DNA of 64,000 bases from NCBI GenBank assembly GCA_964291625.2, contig OZ220089.1:288001-352000 (forward strand). Reading direction: 5' to 3'. Shown here piece after piece: positions 3,726-42,926 of this stretch. Source of the stretch: Candidatus Latescibacterota bacterium (GTDB taxonomy: Bacteria; Latescibacterota; UBA2968; UBA8231). A program made the position numbers and the translations under genes. The notes under the pieces were generated by a model. The model did not search any database. It saw nothing but the letters and a program-made list of their open reading frames with translations, and had not been told where the DNA came from. Positions within the stretch are counted from its first letter, which is position 1. Every line of letters begins with the position of its first letter.

Positions 3726-3967
3726 GCCGGCCGGAGCCGAGTTGTGGCGCGCGCAGGTCATGGTCGATGCCGGCGGCTGCCCACTGGAGAGGATATCCAG
3801 TCGAGGGGGATGATCGCGGATCGGTCGCGCGTAAGATAGCCCCCTGCCGGGGGCCGGCAACCGGCTTCGGCCGCACCGGCCGGACGCTCCGCGGCCCCGT
3901 CCCGCGACGTGCCCCGGGTATGGGTGTCTTGCCCCTCTGCGGCGCCTCCTTAGGTTCGGTCGGACCG

Positions 3968-7205: not shown

Positions 7206-9824
7206 CTACGGCTCTATGCCCGCGTAGATGGTGATGAAGCCTCGCGTCCGGGTCTTCACCGGCTCGAACCGGAGGTCGCGGCGGCTGACCTCGAAACCGA
7301 GGGTGGTGGTCAGCAGGTAGCCCTGGTAGTCGGACAGGTTCATGATCTGCACCGTCGTCGTCAGCCCCCTGTAGGAGGGGCTGGCCCCGGGGGGCACCGG
7401 GTCCCGCAGCTGGTTGAAGACCTCGTACTCCACGCCCCCTTCGACGAAGCTCTTCTGCATGATCGGGTGGCGGAGGACGATCATGAAGAGCTCGGTCAAC
7501 TCCTGGCGGCGCGACTCTTCCCGGGCCACCGGGGCCGAGCGCGACCACTCGCTCTTCCACCGGGGTGTGACGAGCGTCTGCCCGAGGCTCCAGCTGTAGT
7601 GGGCCTTGTTGATCACCCCGAGGAACCAGGACGACCGGCGCTGGCCCCGCAGCTCCAGGTCGAGGTCGTCGTCGACCTGCCGCCACCAGGTCCACTTCAC
7701 CTTGTTGTCCAGGGAGAGATCGCCCCTCCGGTGCTGCCAGCCCGCCCAGGTCGTGTTCACCCAGGTGTCCTGCGCCGCCAGCGGGTCGAGGACGGGGAAG
7801 AGATCCCCCCGGGCGTTGGGCAGCTGCACCCACTGCAGCAGGTCGTCGCGGATCGTGTCCCGGACCCGGCGCAGGTCCTGGAAGAGACGCAGACGCCCCC
7901 GGGCGGCGGTGTTCCAGTCGACGGCGAGCTGTCCGTAGTTGGCCCGGTTGTGGCGGTCGTCGGAGATCTGCTCCACCTCCATGCGGCCCAGGGTGAGGCG
8001 GATGTCGGGCCCGACGTGGAAGCCGCCGTAGAGGTTGAAGCCCTGCTGGTCGCGCCGGTAGGGGAAGTCGGGCCGCTCGTCGTTCTCGAAGCGGTCCACC
8101 GTGCCGTTGTGGTTGGCGTCGACGCCGTAGAGGTACGCCGGGCGGTCGGCGAAGTAGCGCAGGAAGGGCTCCTCCCAGTCGGGGAGCAGGTTCTGGCGCT
8201 CCTCGTTGTCGTTCTGGTTGAAGTCCCAGATGCGGTCGTTGTTCTCGTCGAGCCCCGGGAAGACGTCCTCGTCCCCCGCGCTCGAGCCCTTGCGGCGCCA
8301 GTCCGGAGCCCTGTCGTAGTCGTCGTTGTCCTCGACGAACTCGTAGATCTCGAAGAGGTTGTCGTAGTCCGGCACCGAGGTCTCCTTCTCCACGGTGGCG
8401 AAGGAGGTGGAGTACCCGGGGTCCATGCCGAAGGCCTCGAGGAGGCCGAACCACGGGTAGTCCTTGCGGGAGACGTTGAGCAGCCACCCCAGGGACCGGT
8501 CCCGGGCGGTCTCGTGGCGCTCCCGGTGCGGGTTGGGGTACTTGCGGTAGCGGTGGTTGAGGTTGACCTCGAGGTAGCCGTCGAGCCCGTGGAGGTCCGT
8601 CGTCTGCACCGTGAAGCCGGCGATCTGGTTGCCCGTGGGCATGCCGTAGTCGAAGCGCAGGACGCGCTGGTTGGAGCCGTCCCTGACGTTGCCCCGGGCC
8701 CTGGCGAGGGGCAGAAAGACGACGACGTCGTCGGCGTTGACCTGGCGGTCGGAGGCGATGTCGATGCGGTAGTCGTTGGCCACCACCAGCTCGACCTCGA
8801 CGCGCTCGATCTCCGTCGGGTCGGGTCCCGCGTAGGTGCGGTCGCCGAAGTCGTAGGTGACGACGATCTCGTCGCCGTCCGCCGCCAGGAACCCGGCCCG
8901 CTGCAGGCCGCCCTCCACGAGGGGGCGGAAGCCGATCTCGGAGGCGCGGACGGTGCCGCCGTCGAGGTCGTGGATCCGCAGGTCCGAGGAGAACAGGGCG
9001 CCCCCGGAGCCGTCGCCGGGAGAGTCGTCGGAGATGCGCACCTGGATGCGGTTGACGGTGCGGAAGTTCTGGCCCTCCGAGAGCACGCCGGAGATGATGT
9101 CGCTACCGAAGCCGTCGAGCTGGGTGACCGAGTGGTGGGCGTTGACGTAGGTGCCGCCCACGACCAGGAAGTCGCCGACCTGGGACTCCATCCGGCCCCC
9201 GAAGAGGTTGGTGTTGCTGGTGCGCCCCTCCGGCAGGAACGAGGGCGAGTTGGGCTCGTTGATGCGCGACAGGAGGAGGGTGACGGCGTGCTTGTCGGAG
9301 GCGAAGTCCCACTGCAGGCCGTTGAACTCCGGCTTGCTGAAGGTCATCGGCGTAAGGGTCGTGCGGATGCGGTTGCCCACGGTGACCGCCAGGTGGTACT
9401 GCCCCTTGTGATCGGAAGCCACGGCGAGGCTCGAGAACCAGCCGCTGAAGCGGCCCGTCTTCTCCAGCACGCTGCCGAAGGGCACCGAGTTCTGCTGGCG
9501 CCAGTCGTAGACCAGCCAGCCGCGGGTCAGCAGGTTGCCGTAGGCATCGTACCAGTAGTCCCCCTCCAGCGACGTGGAGACGTAGCGCTGGTAGTTCTGG
9601 CGGGCGTAGTTGGAGTACTGCCACTGCTTCCACTGGTACTCCGCGTAGAGCTCCTGGGGCACGTACCACTTGCGCAGGGCCGGGTCGAGGGCGTCGAAGA
9701 TCACCCCCGGCCCCGTGGGCTCGAAGCTGACCCGGCCGCCGCGCTTGACCGTGCCCAGGCGGGCGCCGTAGTCCTGGGCCCCGGCGGCGGCGGCCAGCAG
9801 CAGAATCGTCAGTATCCGCACCAT
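7206..9824 (-). CDS. Large secreted protein of unrecognised family (family X, copy 2, 872 aa); candidate outer-membrane barrel with Ca-binding-like loops
   Basis: Signal MVRILTILLLAAAAGA after a GGAGAAGGGG RBS-like sequence; the true start lies inside the track's 1375-aa ORF. Clear paralog of 11782..14499. Acidic motifs EDNDDYD, DENNDRIWDFNQND, DANHNGTVD. Beta-strand-rich C-terminus ending GFITIYAGIEP. Confidence 0.8.
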   Translation of the reverse strand: MVRILTILLLAAAAGAQDYGARLGTVKRGGRVSFEPTGPGVIFDALDPALRKWYVPQELYAEYQWKQWQYSNYARQNYQRYVSTSLEGDYWYDAYGNLLTRGWLVYDWRQQNSVPFGSVLEKTGRFSGWFSSLAVASDHKGQYHLAVTVGNRIRTTLTPMTFSKPEFNGLQWDFASDKHAVTLLLSRINEPNSPSFLPEGRTSNTNLFGGRMESQVGDFLVVGGTYVNAHHSVTQLDGFGSDIISGVLSEGQNFRTVNRIQVRISDDSPGDGSGGALFSSDLRIHDLDGGTVRASEIGFRPLVEGGLQRAGFLAADGDEIVVTYDFGDRTYAGPDPTEIERVEVELVVANDYRIDIASDRQVNADDVVVFLPLARARGNVRDGSNQRVLRFDYGMPTGNQIAGFTVQTTDLHGLDGYLEVNLNHRYRKYPNPHRERHETARDRSLGWLLNVSRKDYPWFGLLEAFGMDPGYSTSFATVEKETSVPDYDNLFEIYEFVEDNDDYDRAPDWRRKGSSAGDEDVFPGLDENNDRIWDFNQNDNEERQNLLPDWEEPFLRYFADRPAYLYGVDANHNGTVDRFENDERPDFPYRRDQQGFNLYGGFHVGPDIRLTLGRMEVEQISDDRHNRANYGQLAVDWNTAARGRLRLFQDLRRVRDTIRDDLLQWVQLPNARGDLFPVLDPLAAQDTWVNTTWAGWQHRRGDLSLDNKVKWTWWRQVDDDLDLELRGQRRSSWFLGVINKAHYSWSLGQTLVTPRWKSEWSRSAPVAREESRRQELTELFMIVLRHPIMQKSFVEGGVEYEVFNQLRDPVPPGASPSYRGLTTTVQIMNLSDYQGYLLTTTLGFEVSRRDLRFEPVKTRTRGFITIYAGIEP

Positions 9825-9841
9825 CCCCTTCTCCCCGCTCT

Positions 9842-11785
9842 TCAGTAGGCCACGGCGAGAACGCCGTGGTGGTCCTCGGCAAAGGCGTCGGCGTCGATCC
9901 GCAGGCGCCAGATATAGGTGCCCGGCGCCAGGGGGCGGCCGTCGGCGCCGCGGCCGTCCCACAGGTATTCCGAGGGCCCCAGGCCGTGGAGCCCGAGGTC
10001 GGCGTGGGCCACGCGCCGGCCGGAGAGATCGAAGAGCTCGAAGCGCACCGGGGCCCTGTCGGTCAGTTGCAGCAGGTTGAACTGCACCCGCAGTCCGTCG
10101 TTGAGGCCGTCTCCGTTGGGCGTCACCACCCGGGTGGAGAGGGCGATCTGTCCCACGAGGCGGCCGATCTGCTCCTCCGGGATGGCCACGAAGAGACCGG
10201 ACAGCTCGTCGTGGTCGCCGGGCCCGAAGTCGGCGGCATCGCCGCCCTCGAGGGGCTGGGGCACGGAGGGATAGCGGCTGTTGATGGCGCGGCCCGAGAA
10301 CGTGGTCCCGAAGCGGAACACCGGCAGATCGAAGGTGAACTCGAGGACGTCCCCCGCCCCGGAGATGAGGGGCAGGCCGATGCGGAAGGCGTCGTGCCTC
10401 GAGAACAGGACCTCCGCCTCCAGGGCCTCGCCGTTCAACCGCACCTCGCGCACCCGCTCCATGGGGACCGTCGTGTCCACCTCGAGCTGGTCGAAGCCGA
10501 GGACCGCTCCCGCCCGGCCCACGCGGACGGCGTAGCGGAAGCTGGCCGGCTCCTCGACCTGCGCGAGTCGCGGATAGACCTCCGCCCGCAGGGTGTCGGC
10601 GATCGGCGGCCTCAGATAGGGGAAGGAGATGCTGTCCACCTGCCGGGTGTCGAAGAGGCGGCCGGCGAACTCCAGCCGGAACTGCACCCAGCGGCGCGGG
10701 ATCGGGGCGGTGACCGGCGCCCCGAGGGCCGCCGACTTCCAGGGGCTCCAGCTGTCGACGTCCTCGACCACCCCGGCGCGGTCCTGGGACTCGAGGTCCC
10801 GGTACTCCTCCGGGGTGATCTCGGCGAGGATGGTGCTCTCCGGATCCTCCGGGTCGGGCACGCGGCGCCGGAAGACCAGCGGCGTGTCGTCGTTGCCCGT
10901 GCGCACTCGCACCCTCATCTCGGAGAACGCGGGCGGCCCGGCGATCTCCTCCACCCAGCGCAGCGGCCCGATGGAGGCCCGCCCCCCGAGGTCGATCAGG
11001 TCCGAGTAGTAGACCCCTCCGTCCAGGTACCCGGTGCCGTAGACCTCCAGCTCGTCCACCTCGAAGGGCCGCTCGCTCAGGGAGCGCAGCTTCACCTGGC
11101 GCACGTAGCGCGGGTCCACGCGCACGTCGACGACGGGGTCGGTGTTGTTGGTGACCCGCTCCACGAGGATGTCCGGACTGCCGGCGGCGCGATCCGTCTG
11201 CCGCGGGTTGATCCACACCTCGTAGGCGCGCAGGTAGTCGTCGTGGAAGGGCGTCTCCGGCGTGGCCGCGACGGTGTTGCGCGGATAGAAGCGGATGCGC
11301 TCGACCCCCACCTGGCGCCCGAAGTCGAGCCACACCCAGATCCCGAAACTGGTCAGGGTCGGCTCGAGGAGGGTCGGCTTGCGCTCGAAGGCCACGGTGT
11401 GGTCGCCGTTCACCAGCCCCTCCAGCTGCCTGCGCACCAGGGCGGAGGGCCGGCCGATGGAGTTCGGCGCCCGGATGCGGCCGCCCCTCTCGAGGACGAG
11501 GCCGGCGATGTTGGTCTCGCCGTCGTAGTACCGGGGGCTGATCCAGCCCGGGCGATGGTCGAACTCGATGTCGGCGCCGGGGGCGTTCCCCGTGTCGAGG
11601 ACCGCCCGGACGCCGGACTTCACCAGGTGGACGGGGTCTCCCCGGCCGCCCCCTTCGGCCCAGGAACGGCCGCCGTCCCCGAGGGTGTAGCGGCCGAGCT
11701 GGGCCCCGGCGCCGTCGGCGCAGGCCAGGACCGCCAGGGCGAGGGCCGCGGCGCCGGCCCGCCGGGTGCGGAGGCCGCGGCTCAC
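9842..11785 (-). CDS. Secreted protein with discoidin-like domain and C-terminal FlgD-Ig/CHU_C-like domain (family Y, copy 3)
   Basis: GTG start overlaps the upstream stop (GTGA). Signal ..RRAGAAALALAVLACADGAGA. Motifs WLDFGRQVGVERIRFYPR and ELEVYG. C-terminus VTPNGDGLND...DLSGRRV...WDGRGADG...PGTYIW...VLAVAY. Confidence 0.82.
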   Translation of the reverse strand: MSRGLRTRRAGAAALALAVLACADGAGAQLGRYTLGDGGRSWAEGGGRGDPVHLVKSGVRAVLDTGNAPGADIEFDHRPGWISPRYYDGETNIAGLVLERGGRIRAPNSIGRPSALVRRQLEGLVNGDHTVAFERKPTLLEPTLTSFGIWVWLDFGRQVGVERIRFYPRNTVAATPETPFHDDYLRAYEVWINPRQTDRAAGSPDILVERVTNNTDPVVDVRVDPRYVRQVKLRSLSERPFEVDELEVYGTGYLDGGVYYSDLIDLGGRASIGPLRWVEEIAGPPAFSEMRVRVRTGNDDTPLVFRRRVPDPEDPESTILAEITPEEYRDLESQDRAGVVEDVDSWSPWKSAALGAPVTAPIPRRWVQFRLEFAGRLFDTRQVDSISFPYLRPPIADTLRAEVYPRLAQVEEPASFRYAVRVGRAGAVLGFDQLEVDTTVPMERVREVRLNGEALEAEVLFSRHDAFRIGLPLISGAGDVLEFTFDLPVFRFGTTFSGRAINSRYPSVPQPLEGGDAADFGPGDHDELSGLFVAIPEEQIGRLVGQIALSTRVVTPNGDGLNDGLRVQFNLLQLTDRAPVRFELFDLSGRRVAHADLGLHGLGPSEYLWDGRGADGRPLAPGTYIWRLRIDADAFAEDHHGVLAVAY

Positions 11786-14499
11786 TGCAGCCCCGCGTTC
11801 ATGCTCACGAAGAGCAGCGACGAGCGTTCGGCCGGTCCCGACTCCGGGGCGCGGTCTCCTACCTGGATGCCGCCGCGCGTGACCAGCTGGTAGCCCTGGT
11901 AGCCGACCCGGTTGATCACCTGCACGATCAGGGTTCGGGCCGTGAAGCCGCTGTCGAGCTCCCGGCGCTCCCCCTCCAGCAGCCAGCCCCGGGTCCACTC
12001 CAGGCCGAGCTGCAGCTCGGTGTCGAAGAGTTGCTTACCGTAGCGGGCGTAGTAGTTGACGCTGGTCAGCTCGGAGAGCAGCGGCTGCCGCCACATGAGG
12101 AAGAGGGACTCCTCCAGGCTGCGGGCCGGGGGCCGCCGGGCGTCGTAGGGGCGGTCGGCGCGGTACTCGCTCTTCCAGCGCGGCTCCAGCAGTCCCCGGC
12201 CCACCGGGATCGACCACTCGGCCCGGTTGATCAGGCCCAGGAACCCCGACCTCACCCGCCTCTCCTCCAGGCGCACCTCGTCCTCGTCCCGGCGCTGCCG
12301 GAAGGTCTCCCACTTGAACCGGTGGAAGAGGCGCACGCCCCGTCCCGGCCGCTGATCGAGGTCGGCGTAGAAGGTGTTGCGCCAGGTGTCCCGGGAGGGC
12401 AGCAGGTCCCGGTCGTCCTCCATGCGCCCCGTCGAGCCGCTCGGCTGCACCCAGGTCTGCAGATGATCGGGGATGTCGTCGCGCACCGAGGCGCCGAAGT
12501 CGAAGAGGCGGAGGCGGGAGCGCCCCAGGCGCCCGGTCCAGGCGAGCATGGCGTACCACGACTCCGTCCTGCCGTCGCCGGAGATCAGGCGCATGCGCTG
12601 GCGGCCGGCCACGAGGCGGGCGTCGGGGGTGACGAAGAGCTTGCCGTGGAGGTTGAAGCCGCGGTGGTCGCGCCGGTAGGGGTAGTCGGCATGCAGGTCG
12701 TTCTCGAAGGGGTCGGCGGTGCCGTTGTGGTTCATGTCGACGCCGAAGAGGAACTCGGGCCGGTCCGACCGGAAGCGCAGGAAGGGCTCCTCGTAGTCGG
12801 GAACCAGGTTGCGGTTGTAGTTGAGGGAGACCGCCACCGGCTCTCCCGGCCGCGCGAAGGCCCCTGCCGGGCGGCGGGTGTTGTTCTGGTTGTAGTCGTA
12901 GATGTAGTCGCGGTTGAAGTCGACGCCGGGGAAGGCGATCCCGCCCGAACCGGTCTGCCACGGCCGCGACCACTCGGGGACGGCGTCGTGGTCGTCGTCG
13001 TCGTCGACCAGCTCGTAGAGCATGGGCACGGGGGCCTTGTACTGGATCAGGCCGTTGCCGAGGGTCAGCCAGTGGTTGGTGCTGTAGGCGTCGTCCATGG
13101 AGAACGTCTCCAGGAACAGGCCCCACGGATAGAGGTTCCAGGCGGCGATGCCGTAGGCGGCCCAGGCGGTGCGCACCATCTCGTGGTGCCGGCTCAGCCG
13201 CGGATTGGGATACCTCCGGTGCTGGCGGTTGAGGACCGTCTCCCCCTGCACCGACAGACCGTGCCAGTCCACCAGGTCCCAGTCGAAGCCGACCAGCTCG
13301 TTGGCCGTGGGCAGGCCGTAGTCGAGGAGCAGGACGCGGCCGTTGCTCTCGTCCCGGACGTTGCCCGCCGCCCGCGCGTAGGGGAGGAAGACCGTCTCCG
13401 GGTTGCGCAGGCCGTCCGTCTGGAGATTCGAGGCGAGCTCGATCCGGTAGTCGTTGGCCACGGCCAGCTCCACGGCGGCCGCCGTCAGCGCCCTCGGGTC
13501 GAGGCCGAGCTCGTGCAGGCCCCCCAGGTCGTACTCCAGGAGCAGGCGCTCCGACCCGTCCACCACCAGGGCGCCTTCGCGCAGGCGCCCTCCCTCGATC
13601 AACGGAAGGAGGCCGAGGTCCCGGCCGCTGATGCGCACCCCGTTGGTGTCGGTGAAGACGATGTCGTGGCGGAAGACCCGGGCGCCGCCGACCCCGTCCG
13701 CCGGCGAGTCGTCCCGGACCTGCACCCAGAGCTTGTCCGGGGTACGGTTCTGATTGCTGGTGAGCACGCCGGCCAGCGGGTTGCCGGCCCGGAACTCCGG
13801 CTCGGTGTTGGAGTTGTGCAGGTTCACGTAGGTCAGCCCGAAGCTGCCGGCCGCGAAGGGGACGTAGCCCAGCCGGCCGCCCATCAGGTGGGTCACGTTC
13901 CGGCGGGGGCCGGTGGGCTGGCTCGGCCGGGAGAGGAGCAGGGTGCTCTCGAGCCGGTCCCTGGCATAGTCGAGGCGCACCCCCTCGAAGCGGGGCTTGC
14001 GCAAGGTCAGGGGCGTGAGCTGCGCGTCGAGGACACTGCCCATCATGAGGCGGTAGGTCTCCCCGCCCCGCCGGTCCGAGGCGATGGCGAGCCCCTGGAA
14101 GGCTCCCGGGAACTGAGGCCACAGGATGTCCGAGCCCTCCCGCGACGGCTGCACCTGCTCCCAGGAGTAGACCAGCCAGCCGCGGCCCAGGTGCTCGCCG
14201 AAGGAGTCGTACCACTCCTCCCCCGCCAGGAACGGGTCCAGGTAGCGCAGGTAGCGGTCGCGGGCGTAGTTGGCGCCGGTTTCGTACCAGTGGGCGGCGT
14301 AGGTCCCGGCCAGGCTTCGGGAGGCGTACCACTTGTGCAGGGCCGGAGTCGTGTAGTCCACCTCGAAGCGCGGGGACAGGTCGGCCAAGGCCCGCGTGGG
14401 GTGACTCTGTCCCTCCACCAGGGGCGGGAAGCCCCCGGCCAGGAGCAGGGCCGCCCACAGGGCCGCACGGGGCCCCCGACCGGTCGCCGGAGCGGGCAT
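11782..14499 (-). CDS. Large secreted protein of unrecognised family (family X, copy 1, 905 aa)
   Basis: Signal ..RAALWAALLLAGG. Shares PALxKWY, NYAR..Y.RY, GWLVY.W.Q, VANDYRI..AS, GNVRD.SN.RVL..DYG.PT.N and EEPFLR...DRP..L.GVD.NHNGT.D.FEND with 7206..9824. Ends SLLFVSMNAGLQ. Confidence 0.82.
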   Translation of the reverse strand: MPAPATGRGPRAALWAALLLAGGFPPLVEGQSHPTRALADLSPRFEVDYTTPALHKWYASRSLAGTYAAHWYETGANYARDRYLRYLDPFLAGEEWYDSFGEHLGRGWLVYSWEQVQPSREGSDILWPQFPGAFQGLAIASDRRGGETYRLMMGSVLDAQLTPLTLRKPRFEGVRLDYARDRLESTLLLSRPSQPTGPRRNVTHLMGGRLGYVPFAAGSFGLTYVNLHNSNTEPEFRAGNPLAGVLTSNQNRTPDKLWVQVRDDSPADGVGGARVFRHDIVFTDTNGVRISGRDLGLLPLIEGGRLREGALVVDGSERLLLEYDLGGLHELGLDPRALTAAAVELAVANDYRIELASNLQTDGLRNPETVFLPYARAAGNVRDESNGRVLLLDYGLPTANELVGFDWDLVDWHGLSVQGETVLNRQHRRYPNPRLSRHHEMVRTAWAAYGIAAWNLYPWGLFLETFSMDDAYSTNHWLTLGNGLIQYKAPVPMLYELVDDDDDHDAVPEWSRPWQTGSGGIAFPGVDFNRDYIYDYNQNNTRRPAGAFARPGEPVAVSLNYNRNLVPDYEEPFLRFRSDRPEFLFGVDMNHNGTADPFENDLHADYPYRRDHRGFNLHGKLFVTPDARLVAGRQRMRLISGDGRTESWYAMLAWTGRLGRSRLRLFDFGASVRDDIPDHLQTWVQPSGSTGRMEDDRDLLPSRDTWRNTFYADLDQRPGRGVRLFHRFKWETFRQRRDEDEVRLEERRVRSGFLGLINRAEWSIPVGRGLLEPRWKSEYRADRPYDARRPPARSLEESLFLMWRQPLLSELTSVNYYARYGKQLFDTELQLGLEWTRGWLLEGERRELDSGFTARTLIVQVINRVGYQGYQLVTRGGIQVGDRAPESGPAERSSLLFVSMNAGLQ

Positions 14500-17001
14500 C
14501 AGTAGGCCACGTGCACGAGGCGGACCCGGCTGGTGCGCCGGCCTCCGGTGTCCACGCCCACCCCGACGCGGGCGGCATAGATGCCCGGCGCCACGAGGGC
14601 GCCCGAGTCGTCGCGGCCGTCCCAGGGGAAGTCATGGCGGCCGCTGGCCTGGGGCGGCACCCGGGTCAGGTCGCGCACGAGCCGGCCGGAGAGGTCGTGG
14701 ATGCCCACCGTGATCCGCGGCGGCCCCCGCACCTGGAAGACCTGGAAGGAGAGGACGGCCTCGTCGTTGACGCCGTCGCCGTTGGGGGTCAGCACCGGCG
14801 GCGTCACCTCCAGCGGCGCCAGCAGGCGCCCGGCCTCCAGGTCGGAGACGACCACCAGGGACTGGCTCTCCACCAGGTCGGTGGCGTCTCCCTCGCTGGC
14901 GATCTGCAGGATCCCGGGCTTCCGAGGAGCGGGACAGCTCGACCCGGAAGGTGGTGCCGCTGAGGAAGACCTGGGTGCGGATGCGGGCCGCATAGACCGA
15001 GCGGCCCGAGGTGACCGGCCCGGGAAAGCGGACGTCCACGCCTCCCTCCACCGGAGCGGCGGAGGCGGTGGCCAGCAGGTCGACGGCGTTCCCCGTGCGC
15101 AGGCGGGCCTCGGAGCCGGCGTGCAGCGACACCAGTGTCATGGGCGCGCTCGAGGAGGAGCGGATCCCCATGCGGTCGAAGCCCGGGTCGCCCGCCCGGA
15201 AGCGGGGCCGCATGTAGATGGTGAACTCCTGATCGACCCCCGCGGGCACCTCGCTGGTGGGCCAGATCTCGGCCCACACCTGGTCCACCAGGGGCTCGGC
15301 GAGACCGATCCGCAGGCCGCGTATGGCGGCGCGCCTCAGGGGGTTGATGGTCAACAGGCGCACCTGGGCCAACGCGTAGCGCCGCGGACTCGGCGAGCGG
15401 AAGGGCTCCGGCGACTCGCGGTAGACCTCGCTCCAGCTGCTCCACTTCTGCCCGGGCACGTAGAGCGTGTCCACGGGACCCCGGTTCGACTCGCGGGCCC
15501 TCTCCCAGCGCTCCTGCTCGATGGGGAAACCGGCGGCGTCGAGGTATCTCAGCTCCTGGCGCAGGTCGTCTCCCGAGCGCGTGCGGACCTCGATGCGGGT
15601 CTCCCGCGGCGCCTCCCCCTCCCACGACAGGGAGCTGAACATGCGCGACCCCGGCAGGGCGATCAGGGGGGAGGTGAGGACCACCTCCGAGACGAAGCCC
15701 TCGCCGAAGGCCAGCATCTCGGCGAGCTGGCCGCTCTCCTGCTCGGTGCCGAGCAGCGCCAGGGCCCGCAGCTGCACGTGGCGCACCTCCTGCAGCGGGA
15801 AGCTCTCCTCCAGCTGGTGGAAGCGGTCGCGGTTCAGGCGCTCGTCCAGCTCGTTCCAGACGCGCTCCCCGTTGGGGTCGATGGAGCCGTCGGAGAGCAG
15901 CACCTGGTAGGCCCGAAGCGGCTGCTCGGGGGTGACCAGGCGCACCCGGTCGAGCCAGTACTTGGCGCCCAGGTCGACCTCCAGCTGGTTGCGCCGGCGC
16001 ACCTGGTCATACGGCTTGATGGGGAACCACGTGTAGAAGAACCCGTCCGTCGAGATGGTGCGCACCAGGTCGCCGATGGCCCGGGTCTGGAGGTTGATGA
16101 GCCGCTGCGTGTTGAGGACCACGTTCTCTCCGGGGGTGATCACCTCCAGCTCCGCCACCCGGGGGCGCTCGCGGCGGAAGTGGCGCACCGGCCCCCGTTC
16201 GGCCTCGGGCAGGTCGCTCCAGGTCGCCTCGGAGACCGGGATCTCCCGGCCCGCCACCGTGGTGCGGTGGTAGGCCACCGCGCCCCGGTCCTCCGGCGGC
16301 AGGGCCGCGTGCTCCTCCGGCGAGACCTCGCGGCCTCGGTCCCCGTCCGAGCCGAGGGCCTCCAGACGGACGAACTGCACCACCTGGCCCGTCACCCCCG
16401 GAGGCAGGGGGCGCTGCGGCTTGATGTCGAAGACGAAGTGCCGCCCGTCCTTGTTGGGCAGGACCACCTGGCCGGCGCGGAAGTACTCCAGGTCGTCGTT
16501 GAGGCGGCCGAGCCCGTTGGAGAGGCGTACGCGGAACTTCAGGAACGGATCGCCCTCGCCCTCGGGCGCGAACCGCACCACCACCTGCTCGGCGATCACG
16601 GCGCGGCCGAGGTCGATCTCGACGAACCAGTCCTCCACATCGTCGGCCGGGTCGGGCTCCCACCAGGTGAGGGGGTCCCCGTCGTGCACCAGGGATCCCG
16701 TCTCCGCGCCGCTGCCGATGGCGTGGACGCCGCCCGTGACCGTGTCGGAGTCGGCGAATATGGCCATGTACTCGTGGGCATCGAGGGCGGCGTTGCCCCG
16801 CCGCTGCAGCCCCCGGGGGGTCACGGTGCCGTCAGGCCCCAGCTCCAGGGCGCCCTCGGGCAGCTGCCACGCCGACCAGTGAGCGGCGCGGTCGACGACG
16901 ACCTCCGTCGGCCTCAGCCGGTACCCCTCCTGGGGGGCTGCGGCGGTGCCCAGGAGCACGAGAGCGGCCGCGAGCCAGCTGGGCGGGCGGGGACGGACCA
17001 T
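14499..17001 (-). pseudogene. Family Y copy 2 (two discoidin-like units plus FlgD/CHU_C-like C-terminal domain), frameshifted near 14920; true pseudogene or sequencing error
   Basis: The 789-aa ORF (signal MVRPRPPSWLAAALVLLGTAAA) reads normally to RVELSRSS and then degenerates. The adjacent frame continues PGILQIASEGDA...LTPNGDGVND...WDGRDDSG...LVHVAY to the stop at 14499. Confidence 0.78.
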
Positions 17002-18813
17002 TCAGTAGGCCAGTTCCACCACGCCCCGGCGCCGGCCGGTGCCGCCGTCGGCATGCACGCGCAGCTCGTAGAGGTAGAGGCCGGGAGGGACCCGGCGGCC
17101 GCTGCTGTCGAGACCGTCCCAGGCGGCGGTGAGGGTGCCGGCGCCGTGCTCCGCCTCCCAGGCCCGGACCAGGGGGCGGCCGTCGACAGCGAAGATGTCG
17201 AGGGTCAGCCTCGCCGGTTCCATGAGCTTGAGGAGGGTGAAGGTCAGCTCGAGCCGGTCGTTGACGCCGTCGGCGTTCGGGGTCGTCACGGGGCTGGCGG
17301 CCCTCAGGTTGGAGATCAGGGACAGGCGCCCCGCTGCCGCCCCGTGGCGGACGACCAGACCGCCTCCGGGCTCGCCGTCGATGTCGGCGGGGCGCGCGAC
17401 CTGGTAGGCCACCCTCGATCCCCCCTCCTCGGTGCGCCGGTCGATGGCCTGCACCTCGAACCTCGTGCGCTCGTGGAAGACCGTGGCCGTGAACTCCACC
17501 TGCAGGAAGCTGCCGTCCTGCACCACCCGGCGGGGCAGGTTGACGGTGAAGCCGGTGCCCGGCTCGACGTCGATGAAGGGCAGGACCTCCAGGTCGTCGA
17601 CGCGGATGCTTTGGACCTCGCCGATCTCGGCCGCCGTCCTTACCTGCAACTGCCGGAAACCGGTGTCCCGGTGAGACTCGGAGCCGGTGCGGTCCAGGTG
17701 GACCTGAAGGGAGAGGGTGAAGGGGCTCTCCACCCCGGCCCGCGCCTCCAGGGGCGAGATCTCGGCCGCCAGGTCCCGGGCGACCGGTGGATGGATGTAC
17801 TCGAACCGCAGCTCCCGCAGGCCGGCGCCGGGTTCCGTCAGGGTGATCTGGAACTGCAGGTAGCGTTTCAGGGGTGGCGAGCGCACGAGTCCGTCGGTGA
17901 CCGGCTCCCATGGGCTCCAGGCCGGATTGGGCTCGACCGGCCCCCTGTCCTCCGGCGGGGCGTTCTCCCAGCCCGCCTTGCTGTACTGGATCACGTCGCC
18001 GCCCTGGATCAGGTAGTAGAGGAGGGGGCTCCGGTCCGGCCCGGTGCGGGTGCGCACCACCACGGGCGCGGTGGAGATGTCGCCGCCCTCGTAGAGCACG
18101 CGTCCCCACACGGGCTCCGGCCGGCCGGCCCGCAGCGGCTGGGACTCGTACTCCCCCACGGGGACCGTGCCGTCCGAGTAGACCTCCAGCTCGGCGATCT
18201 CCCAGGCGCGGTCGACCTGCGGCTCCAGGGCCAGCAGGCGCGCCTCCACGCTGGGGAAGCGCTTGTCCACCACGGGGGAGGTGTTCTCGTTGGGGGCCTT
18301 GAAGAACATCAGCCGGCGGGAGTCGGCCAGGGGGTCGAGACTCTGCGCCGCGGACAGGGTGAACTCCTGCAGGAACCGGTTGCGGTTGCGGAAGTCGAGG
18401 CGGGGGAAGAACCGGACGCGGTTCATACGGAAGGTGGCCCCCAGGTCGACCCACAACGTGGAGGACCGCTCCACGCCCTCCTGCAGGTCGGGATCGAAGA
18501 AGGTGGTCGGATCGCCGTCGAAGAGCGCTTCGCCGCCGGGCAGCGGCGTGAACCCCCTCTCCGGGTCCGAGTACAGCACCCGTCCGCCGCGCTCGCCGAG
18601 GGTGGCGGTCAGGTTCGCGTTGGCCTCCACGTCCCACATCCAGATGCCGTCCCCGGTGACGGCGACGTACCGCGAGGAGGACTCCGCCCCCCGCCAGGAG
18701 AGCTCGGGGCCGACGGAGACGTAGCGGACCTCGCCGGCCGACGGTCGGCCCAGCGACAGGAGGGCGGCCGCTACCGCCAGCGGCCGCATCATCGCCAGGT
18801 GAGTTGCGGCCAT
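17002..18813 (-). CDS. Family Y copy 1: secreted discoidin-like plus FlgD/CHU_C-like C-terminal domain protein
   Basis: Signal MAATHLAMMRPLAVAAALLSLG. Motifs LFDGDPTTFF, WVDLGATFRMNRVRFFPR, ELEVY, WSPW. C-terminus TPNADGVND...WDGLDSSGRRVPPGLY...VVELAY. Confidence 0.85.
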   Translation of the reverse strand: MAATHLAMMRPLAVAAALLSLGRPSAGEVRYVSVGPELSWRGAESSSRYVAVTGDGIWMWDVEANANLTATLGERGGRVLYSDPERGFTPLPGGEALFDGDPTTFFDPDLQEGVERSSTLWVDLGATFRMNRVRFFPRLDFRNRNRFLQEFTLSAAQSLDPLADSRRLMFFKAPNENTSPVVDKRFPSVEARLLALEPQVDRAWEIAELEVYSDGTVPVGEYESQPLRAGRPEPVWGRVLYEGGDISTAPVVVRTRTGPDRSPLLYYLIQGGDVIQYSKAGWENAPPEDRGPVEPNPAWSPWEPVTDGLVRSPPLKRYLQFQITLTEPGAGLRELRFEYIHPPVARDLAAEISPLEARAGVESPFTLSLQVHLDRTGSESHRDTGFRQLQVRTAAEIGEVQSIRVDDLEVLPFIDVEPGTGFTVNLPRRVVQDGSFLQVEFTATVFHERTRFEVQAIDRRTEEGGSRVAYQVARPADIDGEPGGGLVVRHGAAAGRLSLISNLRAASPVTTPNADGVNDRLELTFTLLKLMEPARLTLDIFAVDGRPLVRAWEAEHGAGTLTAAWDGLDSSGRRVPPGLYLYELRVHADGGTGRRRGVVELAY

Positions 18814-18814
18814 C

Positions 18815-20319
18815 TCAGAACGGCGCCCAGTTCGGGTGCAGGTCGTCGTACGGATCATCGGTCACCCGCTCCTCGGCGCCGCCCTCGACGGGGACGATGT
18901 AGATGTCGTAGCGCGTCTCCACGTCGACCAGCCGGGCGAAGGCGATGCGGGTGCCGTCGGGAGACCAGGTGGGAGTCTCCTCCCAGGCCTCGCCGAAGGT
19001 CAGCTGCCGGGCGCCGCTGCCGTCGGCGGCCATGACCCAGATGTGGCTGATGTCGAAATCGTCCGGATCCAGCGCGACATAGGCGATCCAGGCCCCGTCG
19101 GGCGACCACGAAGGTTGTCCGGCGTACTGGCCCTCCGGCGAGAGCCGCTCCGTGCCGCCGCCGGCCGGGTCCATGATGGTGATACCGTCCTCGCCGTCGT
19201 AGGCGATCGAGGCGCCGTCGGGCGACCACGCGGGCGACCGGCCCCACGGGGCCAGGGGCTCGTGGGTGAGCCTCTCCACGCCGCTGCCGTCGGCGTTCAT
19301 GACGAAGACCTGCGGCCCCCTCCCTCCCCCGCCGCTGCGCTCGAAGGCGATGCGCTGGCCGTCGGGCGACCAGGCGGGAGCCGAGTCGTAGGCGTCGCCG
19401 CGCGTCAGGTTCACCGGGTTCCCGCCGTCGGCGTCCATGACGTAGATCTCGAGGTCCCCGTCGCGGATCGAGCTGAAGGCCACCTTCGTCCCGTCCGGCG
19501 ACCGGGCCGGCTGCTCGCCCCGGCGGGTGAAGTAGAGGGTTTCCAGGGAGTCGGGGAAGGTGCCGTCCGACTTCGGCAGACCGATCAGGCCCGAGGACAG
19601 GTTCACCACCTCGCCGCTCTCCAGGTCCAGGGAGTGCACCTCCAGGTCGCGCAGGTATTCGCTCTCGAGGCGCCGGTTCGAGGTGAACAGGAGCTGAGTA
19701 GCGTAGGCCGACCCGTCCGGCAGGACCACCTGCGCCGTGTCCTCCGGCTCCGGTGCCGTGAACTCCACGGTCACCCCCCCTCGCGGAGGGCGGCGGCCTG
19801 GGCCCGGGCCGCCTCGCTCAGCGGGTTGCCGGTGAGATCGACGCTCTGCAGGCTGTCCAGACCCGCCAGGGCCGACACCTCCGCCACCTCGTTGTCGGCC
19901 AGCAAGAGCACCTGCAGGCCCTTCAGCGACTCCAGGGGCGTGACCTCCTCGACCCGGTTGCTCCCCAGGTCGAGGTAGCGCAGCCGCGTCAGCCCCGACA
20001 GCGGCGACAGGTCGCGGATCTCGTTGCCGTACAGGTCCAGGGCCTCCAGCCGGCTCAGCTGCTCGATGCCGTCCAGGTTCGCGATCCCCCGCTCCTTGGC
20101 CGTCAGCGAGACCAGCCCGGCCGCGTCGCCTGTCTCCCCCGCGGCTTCGGTCACCGCCGACTGCAGGGCCGAGTCCGCGAAGACCAGGGCGACGCCCGTG
20201 CCGCCCCCGGGGCCGGGGCCGACGGGCGGGTCGGGCTCGGAGCCGCAGCCGGCCAGCATCAGGACGGCCACCAGGGCCGCGAGCTTCCAGGTCATCACCA
20301 TCGCAGGCGCTCCGGACAT
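18815..20319 (-). pseudogene. LRR + TolB-like PD40 propeller lipoprotein, copy D, frameshifted at a G7 run (19774-19780)
   Basis: The ORFs 19771..20319 (LAGC lipobox + LRRs) and 18815..19774 (WSPDG repeats) are the two halves of the intact paralog C. CGC GAG GGG GGG TGA here corresponds to RERGVTVE in the paralogs; one extra base restores the frame. Confidence 0.8.
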
Positions 20320-20320
20320 C

Positions 20321-21850
20321 TCAGAACGGCGTCCAGTTGGGGTCCATGTCATCGTGGGGATCGTCGGTGACCCGCTCCTCGGCACCGCCCTCGACATCGA
20401 CGATGTAGATGTCGTAGCGGATATCCTGCTCCGACTGCCGCGCGAAGGCGATCCGGGTGCCGTCGGGGGACCACGTCGGGTTGCTGTCCCAGGTCTCGGC
20501 GAAGGTCAGCTGCCGGGCGCCGCTGCCGTCGGCGCCCATGACCCAGACGTGGCTGAAGTCCCTGGCCGTGTCCGCCTTGGTGTAGGCGATCCGTTCACCG
20601 TCCGGCGACCACGTCGGGCGCGTCCCCCCGAGGCCAGCCTGCGAGATGAGATGCAGGGATCCGCTGCCGAGCTCGAGGAGGTGGATTCCCCAGTCGGTCC
20701 CCATGGCGGAGACGCAGGCGATGGACGCGCCGTCGGGCGACCACGCCGGCGAGCCGGCCCAGGGGGCCAGGGGTTCGTACGTGAGCTGCTCCACGCCGCT
20801 GCCGTCGGCGTTCATGACGAAGATGTGGGGCACCCCGCCGTCGCGTTCCGACACGAAGGCGATGCGCCGCCCGTCGGGCGACCAGGCGGGACCCGAGTCG
20901 AACGCGTCGTGGCGGGTGAGGTTCACCGGATCGCCTCCGTCCGCGTCCATGACATAGATCTCCATGTCGCCGTCCCGGAAGGAGGCGAAGACCACCCTCG
21001 TCCCGTCGGGCGACCGGGCCGGCTCCTCGCTGGTCCGCGAGGCGTAGTGCCGTTCCAGCGAGTCGGGAACCGAGCCGTTGGAAAAGGGGACGGCGGCCAG
21101 GACCGAGCACAGGTTCACGACCTCGCCGGTCTCCAGGTCCAGGGAATGCACCTCGCGGCTGGACAGGTAGCCGCCCTCGAGCCGCCGATTCGAGGAGAAC
21201 AGGAGCACCGAGGCGCCCAGGGGAGGGGCCGGACCCTCCGGCGGGATCACCTCCACGCTGTCCTCCGCCTCCGGCACGGCGACCTCCACGGTCACGCCGC
21301 GCTCGCGGAAGGCGGCGGCCTGGGCCTGGGCCGCCTCGCTCAGCGGGTTGCCGGTGAGATCGACGCTCTGCAGGCTGTCCAGACCCGCCAGGGCCGACAC
21401 CTCCGTCACCTCGTTGTCGGCCAGGAGCAGCACCTGCAGGCTCCTCAGCGACTCCAGGGGCGTGACCTCCTCGACCCGGTTGCTCCCCAGGTCGAGGTAG
21501 CGCAGCCGCGTCAGCCCCGACAGCGGCGACAGATCGCGGATCTCGTTGCCGTACAGGTCCAGGGCCTCCAGTCGCGTCAGCTGCTCGATGCCGCCCAGGT
21601 CGGCGATCCCCCGCTCCTTGGCGGTCAGGGAGACCAGCCCGGCCGCGTCACCCGTCCCGGCCCCGACGGCGGCCTCCTCCACCGCCGCCTGCAGCGCCGA
21701 GTCCGCGAAGACCAGGGCGACGCCCGTGCCGCCCCCGGGGTCGGGGTCGGGCCCGATGGGGCCGTCCGGGTCCGAGCCGCAGCCGGCCAGGGCCAGGGCG
21801 GCCGCCAGGGCCGTGAGCTTCCGGGTCATCGTCGAGTGCGCTCCCGACAT
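20321..21850 (-). CDS. LRR + TolB-like PD40 propeller lipoprotein, copy C (intact)
   Basis: LALAGC lipobox. Internalin-like LRRs (LEALDLYGNEIRDLSPLSGLTRLRYLDLGSNRVEEV). Five (R/W)SPDG repeats. Ends PNWTPF. Confidence 0.9.
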   Translation of the reverse strand: MSGAHSTMTRKLTALAAALALAGCGSDPDGPIGPDPDPGGGTGVALVFADSALQAAVEEAAVGAGTGDAAGLVSLTAKERGIADLGGIEQLTRLEALDLYGNEIRDLSPLSGLTRLRYLDLGSNRVEEVTPLESLRSLQVLLLADNEVTEVSALAGLDSLQSVDLTGNPLSEAAQAQAAAFRERGVTVEVAVPEAEDSVEVIPPEGPAPPLGASVLLFSSNRRLEGGYLSSREVHSLDLETGEVVNLCSVLAAVPFSNGSVPDSLERHYASRTSEEPARSPDGTRVVFASFRDGDMEIYVMDADGGDPVNLTRHDAFDSGPAWSPDGRRIAFVSERDGGVPHIFVMNADGSGVEQLTYEPLAPWAGSPAWSPDGASIACVSAMGTDWGIHLLELGSGSLHLISQAGLGGTRPTWSPDGERIAYTKADTARDFSHVWVMGADGSGARQLTFAETWDSNPTWSPDGTRIAFARQSEQDIRYDIYIVDVEGGAEERVTDDPHDDMDPNWTPF

Positions 21851-21851
21851 C

Positions 21852-42856: not shown

Positions 42857-42926
42857 GCGAGCCCCGGGCCCGTTGTGAGCCACCCGGCGAAGCCGTACGG
42901 TTAACGATCGGAGCGAGGAACCCGCC

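Follow-up and report, generated by a model that had tools for sequence, protein, structure and literature searches.

The question raised by this locus is what links two kinds of gene that alternate in it, one coding for proteins built of several beta-sandwich domains, discoidin-like at the N-terminus and ending in a T9SS type B/CHU_C/FlgD-Ig-like tail (Y), the other for members of an unannotated family (X). The preliminary description of the 64-kb stretch of DNA analysed here (the window) suggested that X may be a large, undescribed outer-membrane barrel that anchors or exports Y, or a receptor with Y as its surface lid. Our answer is that this is a cluster conserved in Latescibacterota- and Gemmatimonadota-type bacteria, in which predicted X barrels probably hold or deliver Y at the cell surface.

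Organization of the gene cluster

According to GC3 frame analysis, the genes follow the order Y1-Y2-X1-Y3-X2 (18813..7206), all on the minus strand. Their successive spacings, read from the sequence, are 0, −1, −4, and +17 nt, which agrees with the five tightly coupled genes described before. The TGA of Y1 abuts the ATG of Y2, Y2 and X1 have one base in common (TGATG), X1 overlaps in GTGA with Y3, whose start codon is GTG, and a 17-nt spacer with the purine-rich GGGGAGAAGGGG separates Y3 from X2. The cluster extends upstream of Y1 through four tandem LRR-PD40 lipoprotein genes (24869..18815), with 1-nt gaps between them and to Y1. The genes are as follows.

23381..24869, minus strand: LRR + PD40 (TolB-like propeller) lipoprotein, copy 1 (Pfam LRR_4/LRR_8/PD40, LAGC lipobox)
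21852..23381, minus strand: LRR + PD40 lipoprotein, copy 2 (Pfam; LAGC lipobox, end NWTPF)
20321..21850, minus strand: LRR + PD40 lipoprotein, copy 3, 509 aa (Pfam PD40 130 bits, LRR_4 67 bits; lipobox)
18815..20319, minus strand: LRR + PD40 lipoprotein, copy 4, an LRR ORF and a PD40 ORF (Pfam)
17002..18813, minus strand: Y1, 603 aa, secreted multi-beta-sandwich protein with type-B-like C-terminal domain, end LAY (GC3 0.94, Pfam, orthologs, alignment)
14499..17001, minus strand: Y2, larger paralog, discoidin-type domain added at the N-terminus, tail end VAY (Pfam, intact orthologs)
11782..14499, minus strand: X1, 905 aa, predicted outer-membrane barrel family (no Pfam/NCBIfam match, 37% identity to X2)
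9842..11785, minus strand: Y3, 647 aa, three beta-sandwich domains, linker and Ig-like domain, end VAY (Pfam, AF2, Foldseek)
7206..9824, minus strand: X2, 872 aa, predicted barrel-family member (AF2, Foldseek, alignment)

X is a predicted family of large outer-membrane barrels

X1 and X2 can be aligned over their whole length (37% identity, E 3e-171) and both contain two invariant EF-hand-like acidic loops, in agreement with the paralogs described earlier. The loops are listed below.

12886..12921, minus strand: EF-hand-like loop of X1, residues 527-538
12703..12738, minus strand: EF-hand-like loop of X1, residues 588-599
8214..8249, minus strand: EF-hand-like loop of X2, residues 526-537
8085..8120, minus strand: EF-hand-like loop of X2, residues 569-580

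As for the signal peptides ascribed to X, both proteins have hydrophobic N-terminal leaders, a judgement made by eye only. Neither contains a cysteine. No Pfam or NCBIfam family matches X1 or X2 at E ≤ 0.01 and every named homolog is a ‘hypothetical protein’, so the family is indeed an unrecognised one. X1 has 562 representative relatives, the family numbering hundreds of members with several per genome, and X identity between labelled phyla is 56-75%. A search for longer, fused X forms yielded none, which is weak evidence.

The PorP/SprF family, which we take to be PF11751 (PorP_SprF)/TIGR03519, matches none of 52 distant X relatives at E ≤ 1 and none of 53 diverse members at E ≤ 10. More broadly, Pfam and NCBIfam reveal no sequence relation of X to PorP/SprF, PorV, SprA, or other T9SS components (53 members, E ≤ 10). 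Two candidates from the ESM Atlas, DUF6029 (0.89 for whole X, 0.80 for residues 20-135) and SprA_N (0.82 for residues 20-135, chance level), were dropped, since neither has an HMM match in the 53 members at E ≤ 10. Sequence-profile searches of the PDB with three X alignments returned no barrel; a restriction-enzyme M subunit was the sole hit, at chance level.

AF2 models X2 as a fold of about 25 long antiparallel strands, with pLDDT 70-90 across them. The protein also comprises a signal-like leader (1-19), a conserved unmodelled region (21-135), an inserted beta domain (~240-390), and, at 500-590, an acidic stretch; conservation within X is highest at residues 21-135 and 501-590, both of which lie outside the modelled structure. 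All 35 Foldseek PDB matches of this model at E ≤ 0.001 are outer-membrane barrel chains or complexes, with low TM-scores, and include SlpA, MtrB, LptD, porins, TonB-dependent transporters, and ushers. TM-scores to MtrB, LptD, and SlpA are 0.17-0.27 at 6-10% identity, and the best 50 matches contain no FadL, PorV, SprF, or SprA chain. X is thus predicted to be a new family of large outer-membrane beta-barrels with about 25-26 strands, and the large barrel proposed for it stands as a prediction. Its identification with PorP/SprF, SprA, or a TonB-dependent receptor, by contrast, found neither a sequence match nor, for SprF and SprA, a chain in the Foldseek top 50.

Y proteins and the class of their tails

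In the alignment of the three Y paralogs DLGA..RVR, AELEV, VRTRxGxD, WSxW, TPN(G/A)DGxND, WDG..G...PGxY, and the terminal AY are all present, in keeping with the motifs first listed for them. The N-terminus of Y2 matches F5_F8_type_C_2, a discoidin-type domain, with 29.9 bits (Pfam cutoff 27.8). According to the AF2 model of Y3 (pLDDT 82.7), beta-sandwich domains occupy 28-235, 240-391, and 397-500; then come a conserved linker (501-545) and, at the C-terminus, an Ig-like domain (546-646). Foldseek matches of Y include the galactose-oxidase N-domain, which like the Y2 match indicates discoidin/CBM32-like domains, as well as multi-Ig surface and S-layer proteins. Y1 orthologs are 36-55% identical in related loci and 93% in the near-identical locus L042. 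Neither Y1 nor the Y1-type genes of related loci are directly followed by an X gene. No conserved lipobox was found in the Y proteins, which are not clearly lipoproteins.

Pfam support for the FlgD/CHU_C tails first attributed to Y is weak to moderate: FlgD_ig scores are 40.6, 27.9, and 20.4 bits for Y2, Y3, and Y1 (the last below cutoff), and CHU_C scores are 27.0 for Y3 (cutoff 27), 22.5 for Y1 (below cutoff), and 19.3 for the Y2 tail. Among the three tails in the window the type B model TIGR04131 matches only that of Y3 (20.2 bits, cutoff 35). At E ≤ 0.01 its hits include 25 of 32 Y3 orthologs (best E 2.2e-5), and NCBI names some orthologs ‘T9SS type B sorting domain-containing protein’; all Y tails stay under the curated cutoff (best 25.4 bits vs 35). 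The window's three tails also match the C-terminal region of PorU weakly (E 7e-6 to 4e-3).

The type A model TIGR04183 (cutoff 23) is reached by none of five Y tails, whereas all ten scanned NPNPFN-motif tails of neighbouring genes in related loci pass it (26.2-45.5 bits). The NPNPFN-type motif occurs in 11 ORFs of related loci, none of which precedes an X, and the PNGDGxND-type motif in 155, 79 of which end just upstream of X. The last residue of the latter tails is nearly always Tyr (AY in 70 and VY in 66 of the 155). As judged by these models and motifs, the Y tail class is distinct from the true type A tails of neighbouring genes in related genomes. In all ten cases tested, these type A tails belong to genes nearby on the same contigs, so that the related genomes very probably run a T9SS, with Y carrying a different signal. 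No T9SS core gene was found in the window or among 26 representatives of recurrent neighbour clusters, and literature searches turned up no work on T9SS in Latescibacteria or Latescibacterota.

Adjacency and pairing in related loci

The comparison set comprises 80 related loci, the closest relatives being MAGs labelled Latescibacterota and Gemmatimonadota. The order Y1-Y2-X1-Y3-X2 recurs in 18 of the 80. Of the 110 X genes with upstream DNA, 101 come just after the end of a Y tail on the same strand (−60 to +400 nt upstream of X; median gap 42 nt), and another X precedes six of the nine that do not. Given this recurrence of the five-gene order and of Y-then-X, the arrangement is not chance.

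X1 orthologs are preceded by a Y2-type gene in 31 of 32 cases and X2 orthologs by a Y3-type gene in 36 of 39. Overall, in 99 of the 101 pairs Y belongs to the clade most often paired with that X clade (mean 43 and maximum 55 in 1000 label shuffles), a statistic that, coming from related genomes with common synteny, speaks of co-inheritance and not of contact. At least five locus architectures keep the Y-X unit, which has been duplicated as such into at least six X/Y clade pairs. The preliminary description had each X directly after a Y and compared this with type B CTD genes beside porP/sprF; these counts, together with both Y-X junctions of the window, support it, with X placed downstream of a type-B-like CTD gene in the manner of porP/sprF, strongly conserved adjacency, and X clades paired with their own Y clades.

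Neighbouring genes

Next to the cassette, LRR(-PD40) lipoproteins are encoded both in the window and in 20 of 80 related loci, in most of these as LRR only, with PD40 in just 5 of 80. Copy 3 also scores 199 bits, under cutoff, with the TolB propeller model TIGR02800. A double-parvulin PPIase occurs in 15 related loci and goes with another X/Y locus type. The third neighbour is Z.

2841..3761, minus strand: Z, ~300-aa secreted protein, family near X/Y in 30 of 80 related loci

Z matches CBM9_1 weakly (21.3 bits, cutoff 23.4) and is possibly a loosely associated accessory. The idea that Z is a small PorP-like barrel was rejected, since the fold that it weakly matches, CBM9, is soluble. The conserved neighbours are LRR, PPIase, and Z. 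Carbohydrate-related genes such as the GH42 beta-galactosidase near the cluster (24950-27037), and the sulfatase and FGE found along with CBM9-like Z in related loci, do not have this conservation.

Comparison with known systems

According to passages of PMC12618676, the place of porP/sprF genes in Bacteroidota is immediately after type B substrate genes. Parts of PMC9143113 describe PorP/SprF as a 14-stranded FadL-type barrel and report that PorP binds a type B protein as well as PorE, a lipoprotein with a repeat domain and a beta-propeller, that SprA binds a PPIase, and that six porP-like genes of F. johnsoniae adjoin porE-like genes. SprF uses twin cysteines (a passage of PMC12635249). As far as the relevant parts of PMC12618676 and PMC9143113 describe them, SprB-SprF of Flavobacterium johnsoniae and PG1035-PorP of Porphyromonas gingivalis resemble the X/Y module in the leader and PNGDGxND-type Ig-like CTD of the cargo, the barrel gene directly after it, several paralogous pairs per genome, and orphan cargoes. 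Unlike PorP/SprF, however, X has 870-905 aa and about 25 strands, is ~3 times larger, and lacks both cysteine and a PorP_SprF match; the hosts are Latescibacterota- or Gemmatimonadota-labelled MAGs and not Bacteroidota, and the Y tails score under the type B cutoff.

The LRR-PD40 lipoprotein resembles PorE in combining a repeat scaffold with a beta-propeller and in being encoded beside barrel and cargo genes, but it has LRR instead of TPR repeats, and no carboxypeptidase-regulatory or OmpA_C peptidoglycan-binding domain was detected in it. In the proposed reading, an Ig-like CTD would dock on an outer-membrane barrel as in PorV-PorU and PorQ-PorZ, and the weak PorU match of the Y tails is a further likeness; the barrel, however, differs in family and size, and the Y tails fail the type A model. 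MtrB and LptD (26 strands each) and Deinococcus SlpA, the best structural matches of X2, are similar in strand number and size, whereas X lacks a significant sequence match to them, a cytochrome or LPS-transport context, and an SLH domain. SprA/Sov is a 36-strand barrel, and X matches neither SprA_N nor another SprA model. SusC/SusD likewise combine a barrel gene with one for a carbohydrate-binding surface protein, and several such paralogous pairs exist in a genome, but X lacks a plug, a TonB box, and TonB_dep_Rec, Y is not a SusD-like lipoprotein, and the cargo gene comes first.

Proposed role and alternative explanations

We give an even chance to the reading that X is a dedicated outer-membrane barrel partner of Y, in a functional analog of the Bacteroidota type-B-CTD/PorP-SprF/PorE module whose barrel is not homologous to PorP. 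Binding, topology, T9SS dependence, and surface display are what we infer, as follows. Y would be exported from the cytoplasm by Sec and then pass the outer membrane via a T9SS-type route. It would be kept at the surface by its uncleaved type-B-like CTD, probably together with the preceding conserved linker, bound to the cognate X barrel, with the discoidin- and Ig-like domains displayed outward as lectin- or adhesin-like arms and the LRR(-PD40) lipoproteins acting as a PorE-like scaffold. Against this anchor reading stand the lack of any sequence relation between X and T9SS components, the size of X and its missing cysteine, the type B scores of the Y tails, the absence of T9SS core genes from the window and the 26 neighbour representatives, and the origin of the pairing statistics in syntenic relatives. 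In addition, there are three Y genes for two X genes, which leaves Y1 without a barrel of its own, and the conserved X residues 21-135 and 501-590 are not explained by it. A complex prediction for X2 20-872 with Y3 500-646, run without controls, gave no answer (score 0.00, mark 0.32) and weighs neither for nor against binding.

Two readings that dispense with the T9SS appear unlikely. In the first, a ~26-strand, calcium-binding X would both translocate and hold its cognate lectin-like Y through the Tyr-ending type-B-like CTD, independently of SprA; such a self-contained display system of Latescibacterota and Gemmatimonadota, built on a hitherto unknown barrel class and to which we assign a low probability, would be a new outer-membrane secretion and anchoring route with only the signal domain in common with T9SS. 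In the second, likewise of low probability, X is an export channel for Y in a self-contained, T9SS-independent two-component display comparable to two-partner secretion, ushers, or Slam, and the CTD with its terminal Tyr is the signal. X is far larger than a 14-strand shuttle and its barrel is lumen-sized like those of MtrB and LptD, which enclose partners; no T9SS core gene lies near any cassette examined, and the strongly conserved parts of X outside the model might serve as a plug or gate. The Tyr ending of Y-type tails also fits a channel signal, a terminal Tyr being reminiscent of barrel-assembly signals. The probable availability of a T9SS, the resemblance of the Y tail to the type B signal, and the Y1-type genes without an adjacent X nevertheless argue against an export channel.

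The remaining alternatives concern what else the pair might do. X as a solute or glycan channel with Y as its surface glycan-binding partner, i.e., a Sus-like capture-and-import unit, is in our view quite improbable. It accords with the discoidin/CBM32-like domains of Y, with the GH42, sulfatase, FGE, and Z genes, and with TonB-dependent transporters, which rank among the lower Foldseek matches of X2. However, Plug, TonB_dep_Rec, and SusD-like models have no match in X or Y (Pfam/NCBIfam; 52 distant relatives, 53 members), Y is not clearly lipidated, and the carbohydrate-related neighbours are not the conserved ones. The receptor-and-lid proposal likewise found no specific support, there being neither a plug/TonB-receptor match nor a conserved Y lipobox. 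Mere co-transcription of envelope proteins without direct contact, with adjacency as inherited synteny, is very unlikely: every adjacency and pairing count does come from related lineages, but the Y-X unit survives rearrangement and duplication, the genes are translationally coupled, and the X identity between labelled phyla indicates strong constraint. Least probable is that X is a structural envelope protein related to the Deinococcus-Thermus SlpA barrel, a surface-layer anchor, with Y forming the layer or a canopy over it. SlpA/SDBC takes the first three places among the Foldseek matches of X2 (E 1.9e-7 to 1.3e-6), SlpA_C (PF21620) is the only Pfam family recurring in distant X relatives (15 of 52 and 14 of 53), and Y resembles multi-Ig surface and S-layer proteins. 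Nonetheless, all SlpA_C scores are under cutoff (best 30.2 bits vs 35) with no match in X1 or X2, the TM-scores of these three are just 0.20-0.23 (0.23 for SlpA in first place), the three PDB profile searches did not return SlpA, X has neither an SLH domain nor a coiled coil, and the presence of several X/Y paralog sets in one genome suits specialised modules more than a single lattice.

Returning to the dedicated-partner reading, to our knowledge the pairing of type B T9SS cargo with a PorP/SprF shuttle has been worked out only in Bacteroidota, and we know of essentially no exploration of the same logic in other FCB-group phyla. Our analysis suggests that the cargo-signal logic persists in two little-studied, mostly uncultured phyla, with the small shuttle barrel replaced by a much larger, highly conserved barrel family. 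The unannotated X family with its calcium-binding-like loops thereby gains a testable role, the second tail class beside type A bears on surface proteome prediction for these MAGs, and the X/Y paralog pairs form a natural experiment on the evolution of CTD-barrel recognition.

Frame integrity and other features of the cluster

Rfam and tRNA scans of the window found nothing, and terminator-like sites are no commoner than in shuffles. A sigma-70-like promoter site (0.3 expected) lies at 24944-24916, 5' of the first LRR-PD40 gene; it is given little weight, as FCB-group promoters may differ.

In the assembly, the Y2 reading frame is interrupted: one additional A at 14921/14922 puts its tail in another frame, the site reading GGAAG here and GGAG in L042, a 98%-identical relative, and Y2 orthologs are in frame. 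LRR-PD40 copy 1 has a frameshift near 23570-23620, so that its C-terminus (...CWAPF-stop) is in another frame, and copy 4, whose stop lies 1 nt before the Y1 ATG, is split at a G7 run at about 19771-19777. Because L042 lacks the extra base and three broken genes lie close together, the frameshifts point to assembly indels or recent decay; a programmed frameshift in Y2 was rejected on the same L042 comparison and the two further frameshifts in the neighbouring genes. The Y2 frameshift and the upstream lipoprotein genes, which are part of the same tightly packed cluster, are both additions to the preliminary description.

Organization of the gene cluster

The window has a G+C content of ~71%, at which long ORFs stay open on both strands, and the true coding frames were therefore picked by third-position G+C. 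The arrangement of five genes, Y-Y-X-Y-X, given in the preliminary description is confirmed with two corrections, namely a frameshift in Y2 and an extension of the cluster upstream.

Genes of the cluster and its surroundings
2841-3761, minus strand: Z, a secreted protein of about 290-300 aa
3767-5452, plus strand: large TPR protein, upstream of the FG-GAP/ASPIC-UnbV gene
5460-7196, plus strand: FG-GAP/ASPIC-UnbV protein, convergent with the end of X2
9824..7206, minus strand: X2, 872 aa
11785..9842, minus strand: Y3, 647 aa
14499..11782, minus strand: X1, 905 aa
17001..14499, minus strand: Y2, broken reading frame
18813..17002, minus strand: Y1, 603 aa
18815-24869, minus strand: four tandem paralogous LRR-PD40 lipoprotein genes (N-terminal LRR and TolB-like PD40 propeller, LAGC lipobox)
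24950-27037, minus strand: GH42-type beta-galactosidase, directly upstream of the LRR-PD40/Y/X cluster and co-oriented with it

The genes are tightly packed, with junctions of 0 nt (Y1/Y2), a 1-nt overlap (Y2/X1, TGATG), a 4-nt overlap (X1/Y3, GTGA), and a 17-nt spacer containing a purine-rich stretch (Y3/X2). The four LRR-PD40 genes upstream of Y1 are separated from each other and from Y1 by 1-nt gaps, share the junction TGAGATG (including the one with Y1), and encode C-termini of the form NW(T/A)PF or CWAPF. The sole sigma-70-like site of the region is located at 24944-24916, between the GH42 gene and the LRR-PD40 cluster.

In Y2 the final 141 residues, including the tail domain, sit in a different frame. 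Alignment to related locus L042, with an X2 at 98% identity, reveals an extra A at 14921/14922, and the two parts of Y2 share one frame in all orthologous loci. LRR-PD40 copy 4 is also frameshifted, at a G7 run (about 19771-19777), as is copy 1 at about 23570-23620. With three indels inside 18 kb, and the one in Y2 absent from L042, errors of assembly seem likelier than three separate pseudogenes; recent decay is a less likely possibility.

The X family and its predicted fold

X1 and X2 share 37% identity from end to end, and no Pfam or NCBIfam model matches either of them, in agreement with the initial view of X as an unrecognised family. With X2 as query, 919 of the 8000 candidates scored have E<=0.001. 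The best 120 of these relatives range from 56 to 98% in identity, with lengths mostly of 850-915 aa. No Pfam domain is precomputed for any of them, and wherever a name is given it is 'hypothetical protein', in MAGs of Latescibacteria, Gemmatimonadetes, or Handelsmanbacteria. When the cluster representatives were searched exhaustively with X1, 562 relatives emerged (89 of them with E<=1e-30), and distant members bearing names belong to the same phyla as the close ones.

The AlphaFold model of X2, built from 32 sequences, has a pLDDT of 65.7 and a pTM of 0.64. It predicts a signal-like helix, approximately 25 antiparallel strands (mostly 10-17 residues, pLDDT 70-90), and an inserted beta domain at ~240-390, with two regions, 14-140 and 500-586, left unmodelled. 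Foldseek gives 35 PDB matches at E<=0.001, each of them an outer-membrane barrel or a complex containing one, headed by Deinococcus SlpA/SDBC, MtrB, and LptD; since the TM-scores are only 0.13-0.27, the fold class is clear and a specific relative is not identifiable. Conservation within the protein is highest in the unmodelled regions (mean majority fraction 0.79 vs 0.67 for the confident barrel). The second of them contains two EF-hand-like loops of 12 residues (DxNxDxxxDxxQ and DxNxNGxxDxxE), both present in 32/32 close members, with at least one in 53/53 diverse members. One side of the model has very short turns and the opposite side long insertions, a pattern that would place the inserted domain and the acidic region outward; a further strand contributed by the N-terminal part may bring the total to 26.

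Y proteins and their tails

All Y motifs listed in the preliminary description are present in the alignment of the three paralogs. According to Pfam (cutoffs 27 for both families), the extreme C-terminus scores 40.6 bits for FlgD_ig and 19.3 for CHU_C in Y2, 27.9 and 27.0 in Y3, and 20.4 and 22.5 in Y1. The N-terminus of Y2 holds a discoidin-type domain (29.9 bits, cutoff 27.8), and no catalytic domain was found in the Y proteins. The AlphaFold model of Y3, built from 32 orthologs, is confident (pLDDT 82.7); in it, three beta-sandwich domains are followed by a conserved linker and an Ig-like domain at the C-terminus. Foldseek matches this model to surface or lectin-type proteins of several domains, among them the Fn3-like domains of C5a peptidase, galactose oxidase (with its N-domain of discoidin type), PorU, S-layer proteins, and adhesins; global TM-scores are low throughout, as expected for a beads-on-string build. 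Nearly all of the 120 listed Y3 homologs carry PF13585 and/or PF13860, and those that NCBI has named are called 'T9SS type B sorting domain-containing protein', 'gliding motility-associated C-terminal domain-containing protein', or 'hypothetical protein'.

Two classes of tails were detected in the 80 related loci. A PNGDGxND-type motif lies within the last 140 residues of 155 ORFs, nearly all of which end in tyrosine (AY 70, VY 66), while an NPNPFN-type motif occurs in 11 ORFs with a basic or acidic terminal residue. The 10 NPNPFN-type tails scanned all reach 26.2-45.5 bits with the curated NCBI model for T9SS type A, above its cutoff of 23, in contrast to 0/5 Y tails. The type B model matches 3/5 Y tails weakly (16.5-25.4 bits, cutoff 35) and 25/32 Y3 orthologs at E<=0.01. 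By these sequence criteria, the Y tail is a class apart from type A, apparently type-B-like yet divergent.

Because all scanned NPNPFN-type tails pass the type A model, the organisms of the related loci very probably have a T9SS. True type A tails (NPNPFN, TIGR04183 above cutoff) are found on neighbouring FG-GAP/ASPIC and LVIVD-repeat proteins (e.g., L001:14196-17597, L045:2337-4736, and L046:2512-4875), which is evidence for type A sorting, too, in these genomes labelled Latescibacterota or Gemmatimonadota. T9SS core genes were found neither in the window nor among 26 representative members of the recurrent neighbour clusters. As for the literature, no paper linking Latescibacteria or Latescibacterota with T9SS was found, for Gemmatimonadota or Gemmatimonadetes the searches turned up T9SS only in passing mentions, and nothing on Latescibacterota with 'outer membrane' and 'beta-barrel' was judged related by title and abstract. 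The possibility of T9SS in Gemmatimonadetes is raised in a review (PMC11285876).

Conservation of the X-Y pairing

Scanning the X alignment against one genome per species gave at least 683 matching stretches, at least 662 of them confirmed, and the locus counts below rest on the best 80 of the at least 683 matches. These 80 loci are labelled Latescibacter* (47), Gemmatimonad* (24), 'unnamed bacterium' (5), Handelsmanbacteria (2), Planctomycetota (1), and Vicinamibacterales (1, on a 1.7-kb contig). Some complete Latescibacterota chromosomes bear several X/Y loci (for example those with L039/L053/L071/L079 and L013/L036/L073), and L019 and L021 come from MAGs bearing the label Gemmatimonas phototrophica. 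The complete order Y1-Y2-X1-Y3-X2 is seen in 18 of the best 80 loci (tblastn with the window proteins); other recurring orders are Y2-X1-Y3-X2-LRR-Y1, Y-X-Z-Y-PPIase-Y, Y..Y-X-X-Y, and Y-Y-Y-X.

Adjacency was assessed on 119 near-full-length X genes, 110 of which are preceded by 600 nt of DNA or more. A Y tail ends -60 to +400 nt upstream of X on the same strand in 101/110 cases (median gap 42 nt). Owing to the relatedness of the genomes and the common ancestry of many loci, this and the following pairing counts represent non-independent events. Six of the 9 X genes having no upstream Y tail come after another X. X1 orthologs are preceded by a Y2-type gene in 31/32 cases, and X2 orthologs by a Y3-type gene in 36/39. 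When the 101 pairs are clustered independently, 99 have the Y clade that is modal for their X clade, vs a mean of 43 and a maximum of 55 in 1000 label shuffles. These counts show that Y and X are inherited and duplicated together, which is distinct from showing physical contact.

Among other recurrent neighbours in the best 80 loci, Z family members occur in 30, often immediately 3' of X (e.g., L066:12754-13662). This family has nothing above the Pfam cutoffs, weak CBM9_1 matches in 2/8 members tested, and a TWGxIKxxF-type motif at the C-terminus of the examples read. LRR-only relatives of LRR-PD40 with lipoprotein-like leaders directly follow X2 in 20 loci. A PPIase of ~575 aa with two parvulin-type domains is present in 15, between Y genes (e.g., L043:15656-17377 and L066:15640-17379), and FG-GAP/ASPIC proteins, some type-A-tailed, in 14.

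Comparison with the type B/PorP module and alternative explanations

According to PMC12618676, type B CTD substrates of Bacteroidota depend on a cognate PorP/SprF-like protein, commonly encoded directly downstream, and orphan substrates have a shuttle in common. The window cluster resembles this module in having type-B-like cargo with a barrel gene immediately downstream. PMC9143113 describes binding of PorP to the type B protein PG1035 and to the lipoprotein PorE (TPR, beta-propeller, carboxypeptidase-regulatory-like, and OmpA_C domains), places porE-like genes next to six F. johnsoniae porP-like genes, and reports that SprF binds SprB and that a PPIase associates with the translocon SprA in F. 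johnsoniae. Similarly, the window encodes, beside these genes, a lipoprotein that combines a repeat scaffold with a propeller, and the related loci have the double-parvulin PPIase. X, however, represents a different, much larger barrel family with no PorP_SprF match, and it contains no cysteine, unlike SprF, which bonds GldK through twin cysteines (PMC12635249). X/Y is therefore classed as a cluster that may work like the type B/PorP module while lying outside the PorP family.

The proposal that X is a large outer-membrane barrel that anchors or exports its Y partner, or acts as a receptor with Y as its lid, finds partial support: the family, so far undescribed, is predicted to form such a barrel, and X is a conserved genetic partner of Y, while X-Y contact, topology, T9SS dependence, and biological role are inferred. 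We give about an even chance to X being an anchor or shuttle for Y, and four other explanations share the rest. X might be an autonomous translocon for Y, a reading against which the type-B-like tails and the probable T9SS speak. X and Y might form a glycan-uptake pair, a reading favoured by the discoidin-type domain of Y2 and the galactose oxidase match of Y3. X might also be an SlpA-like envelope scaffold; SlpA heads the structural matches and Pfam SlpA_C is the sole recurrent weak sequence signal in the family (15/52 and 14/53 distant members), but all these matches are below cutoff, and three PDB profile searches with X alignments did not find SlpA. Finally, the adjacency might be mere synteny, a reading favoured by the common ancestry of many loci and opposed by the clade-specific pairing.

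Other features of the window

At 50403-57000 (minus strand) and 57903-59461, an Omp85/POTRA protein is encoded beside a TamB-like protein of 1500 aa, and the two make up a TAM-type pair for outer-membrane assembly. Genes for ExbD, ExbD, and ExbB come next, and this gene set confirms a diderm envelope. A strongly negative AT skew (-0.16 to -0.24) marks 42000-48000, over plus-strand membrane-protein genes (EamA, MscS-like, DUF6541/PTPS-related protein, and MgtE). A short MgtE_N+CBS ORF (44854-45690) is separate from the full MgtE gene (48088-49434).
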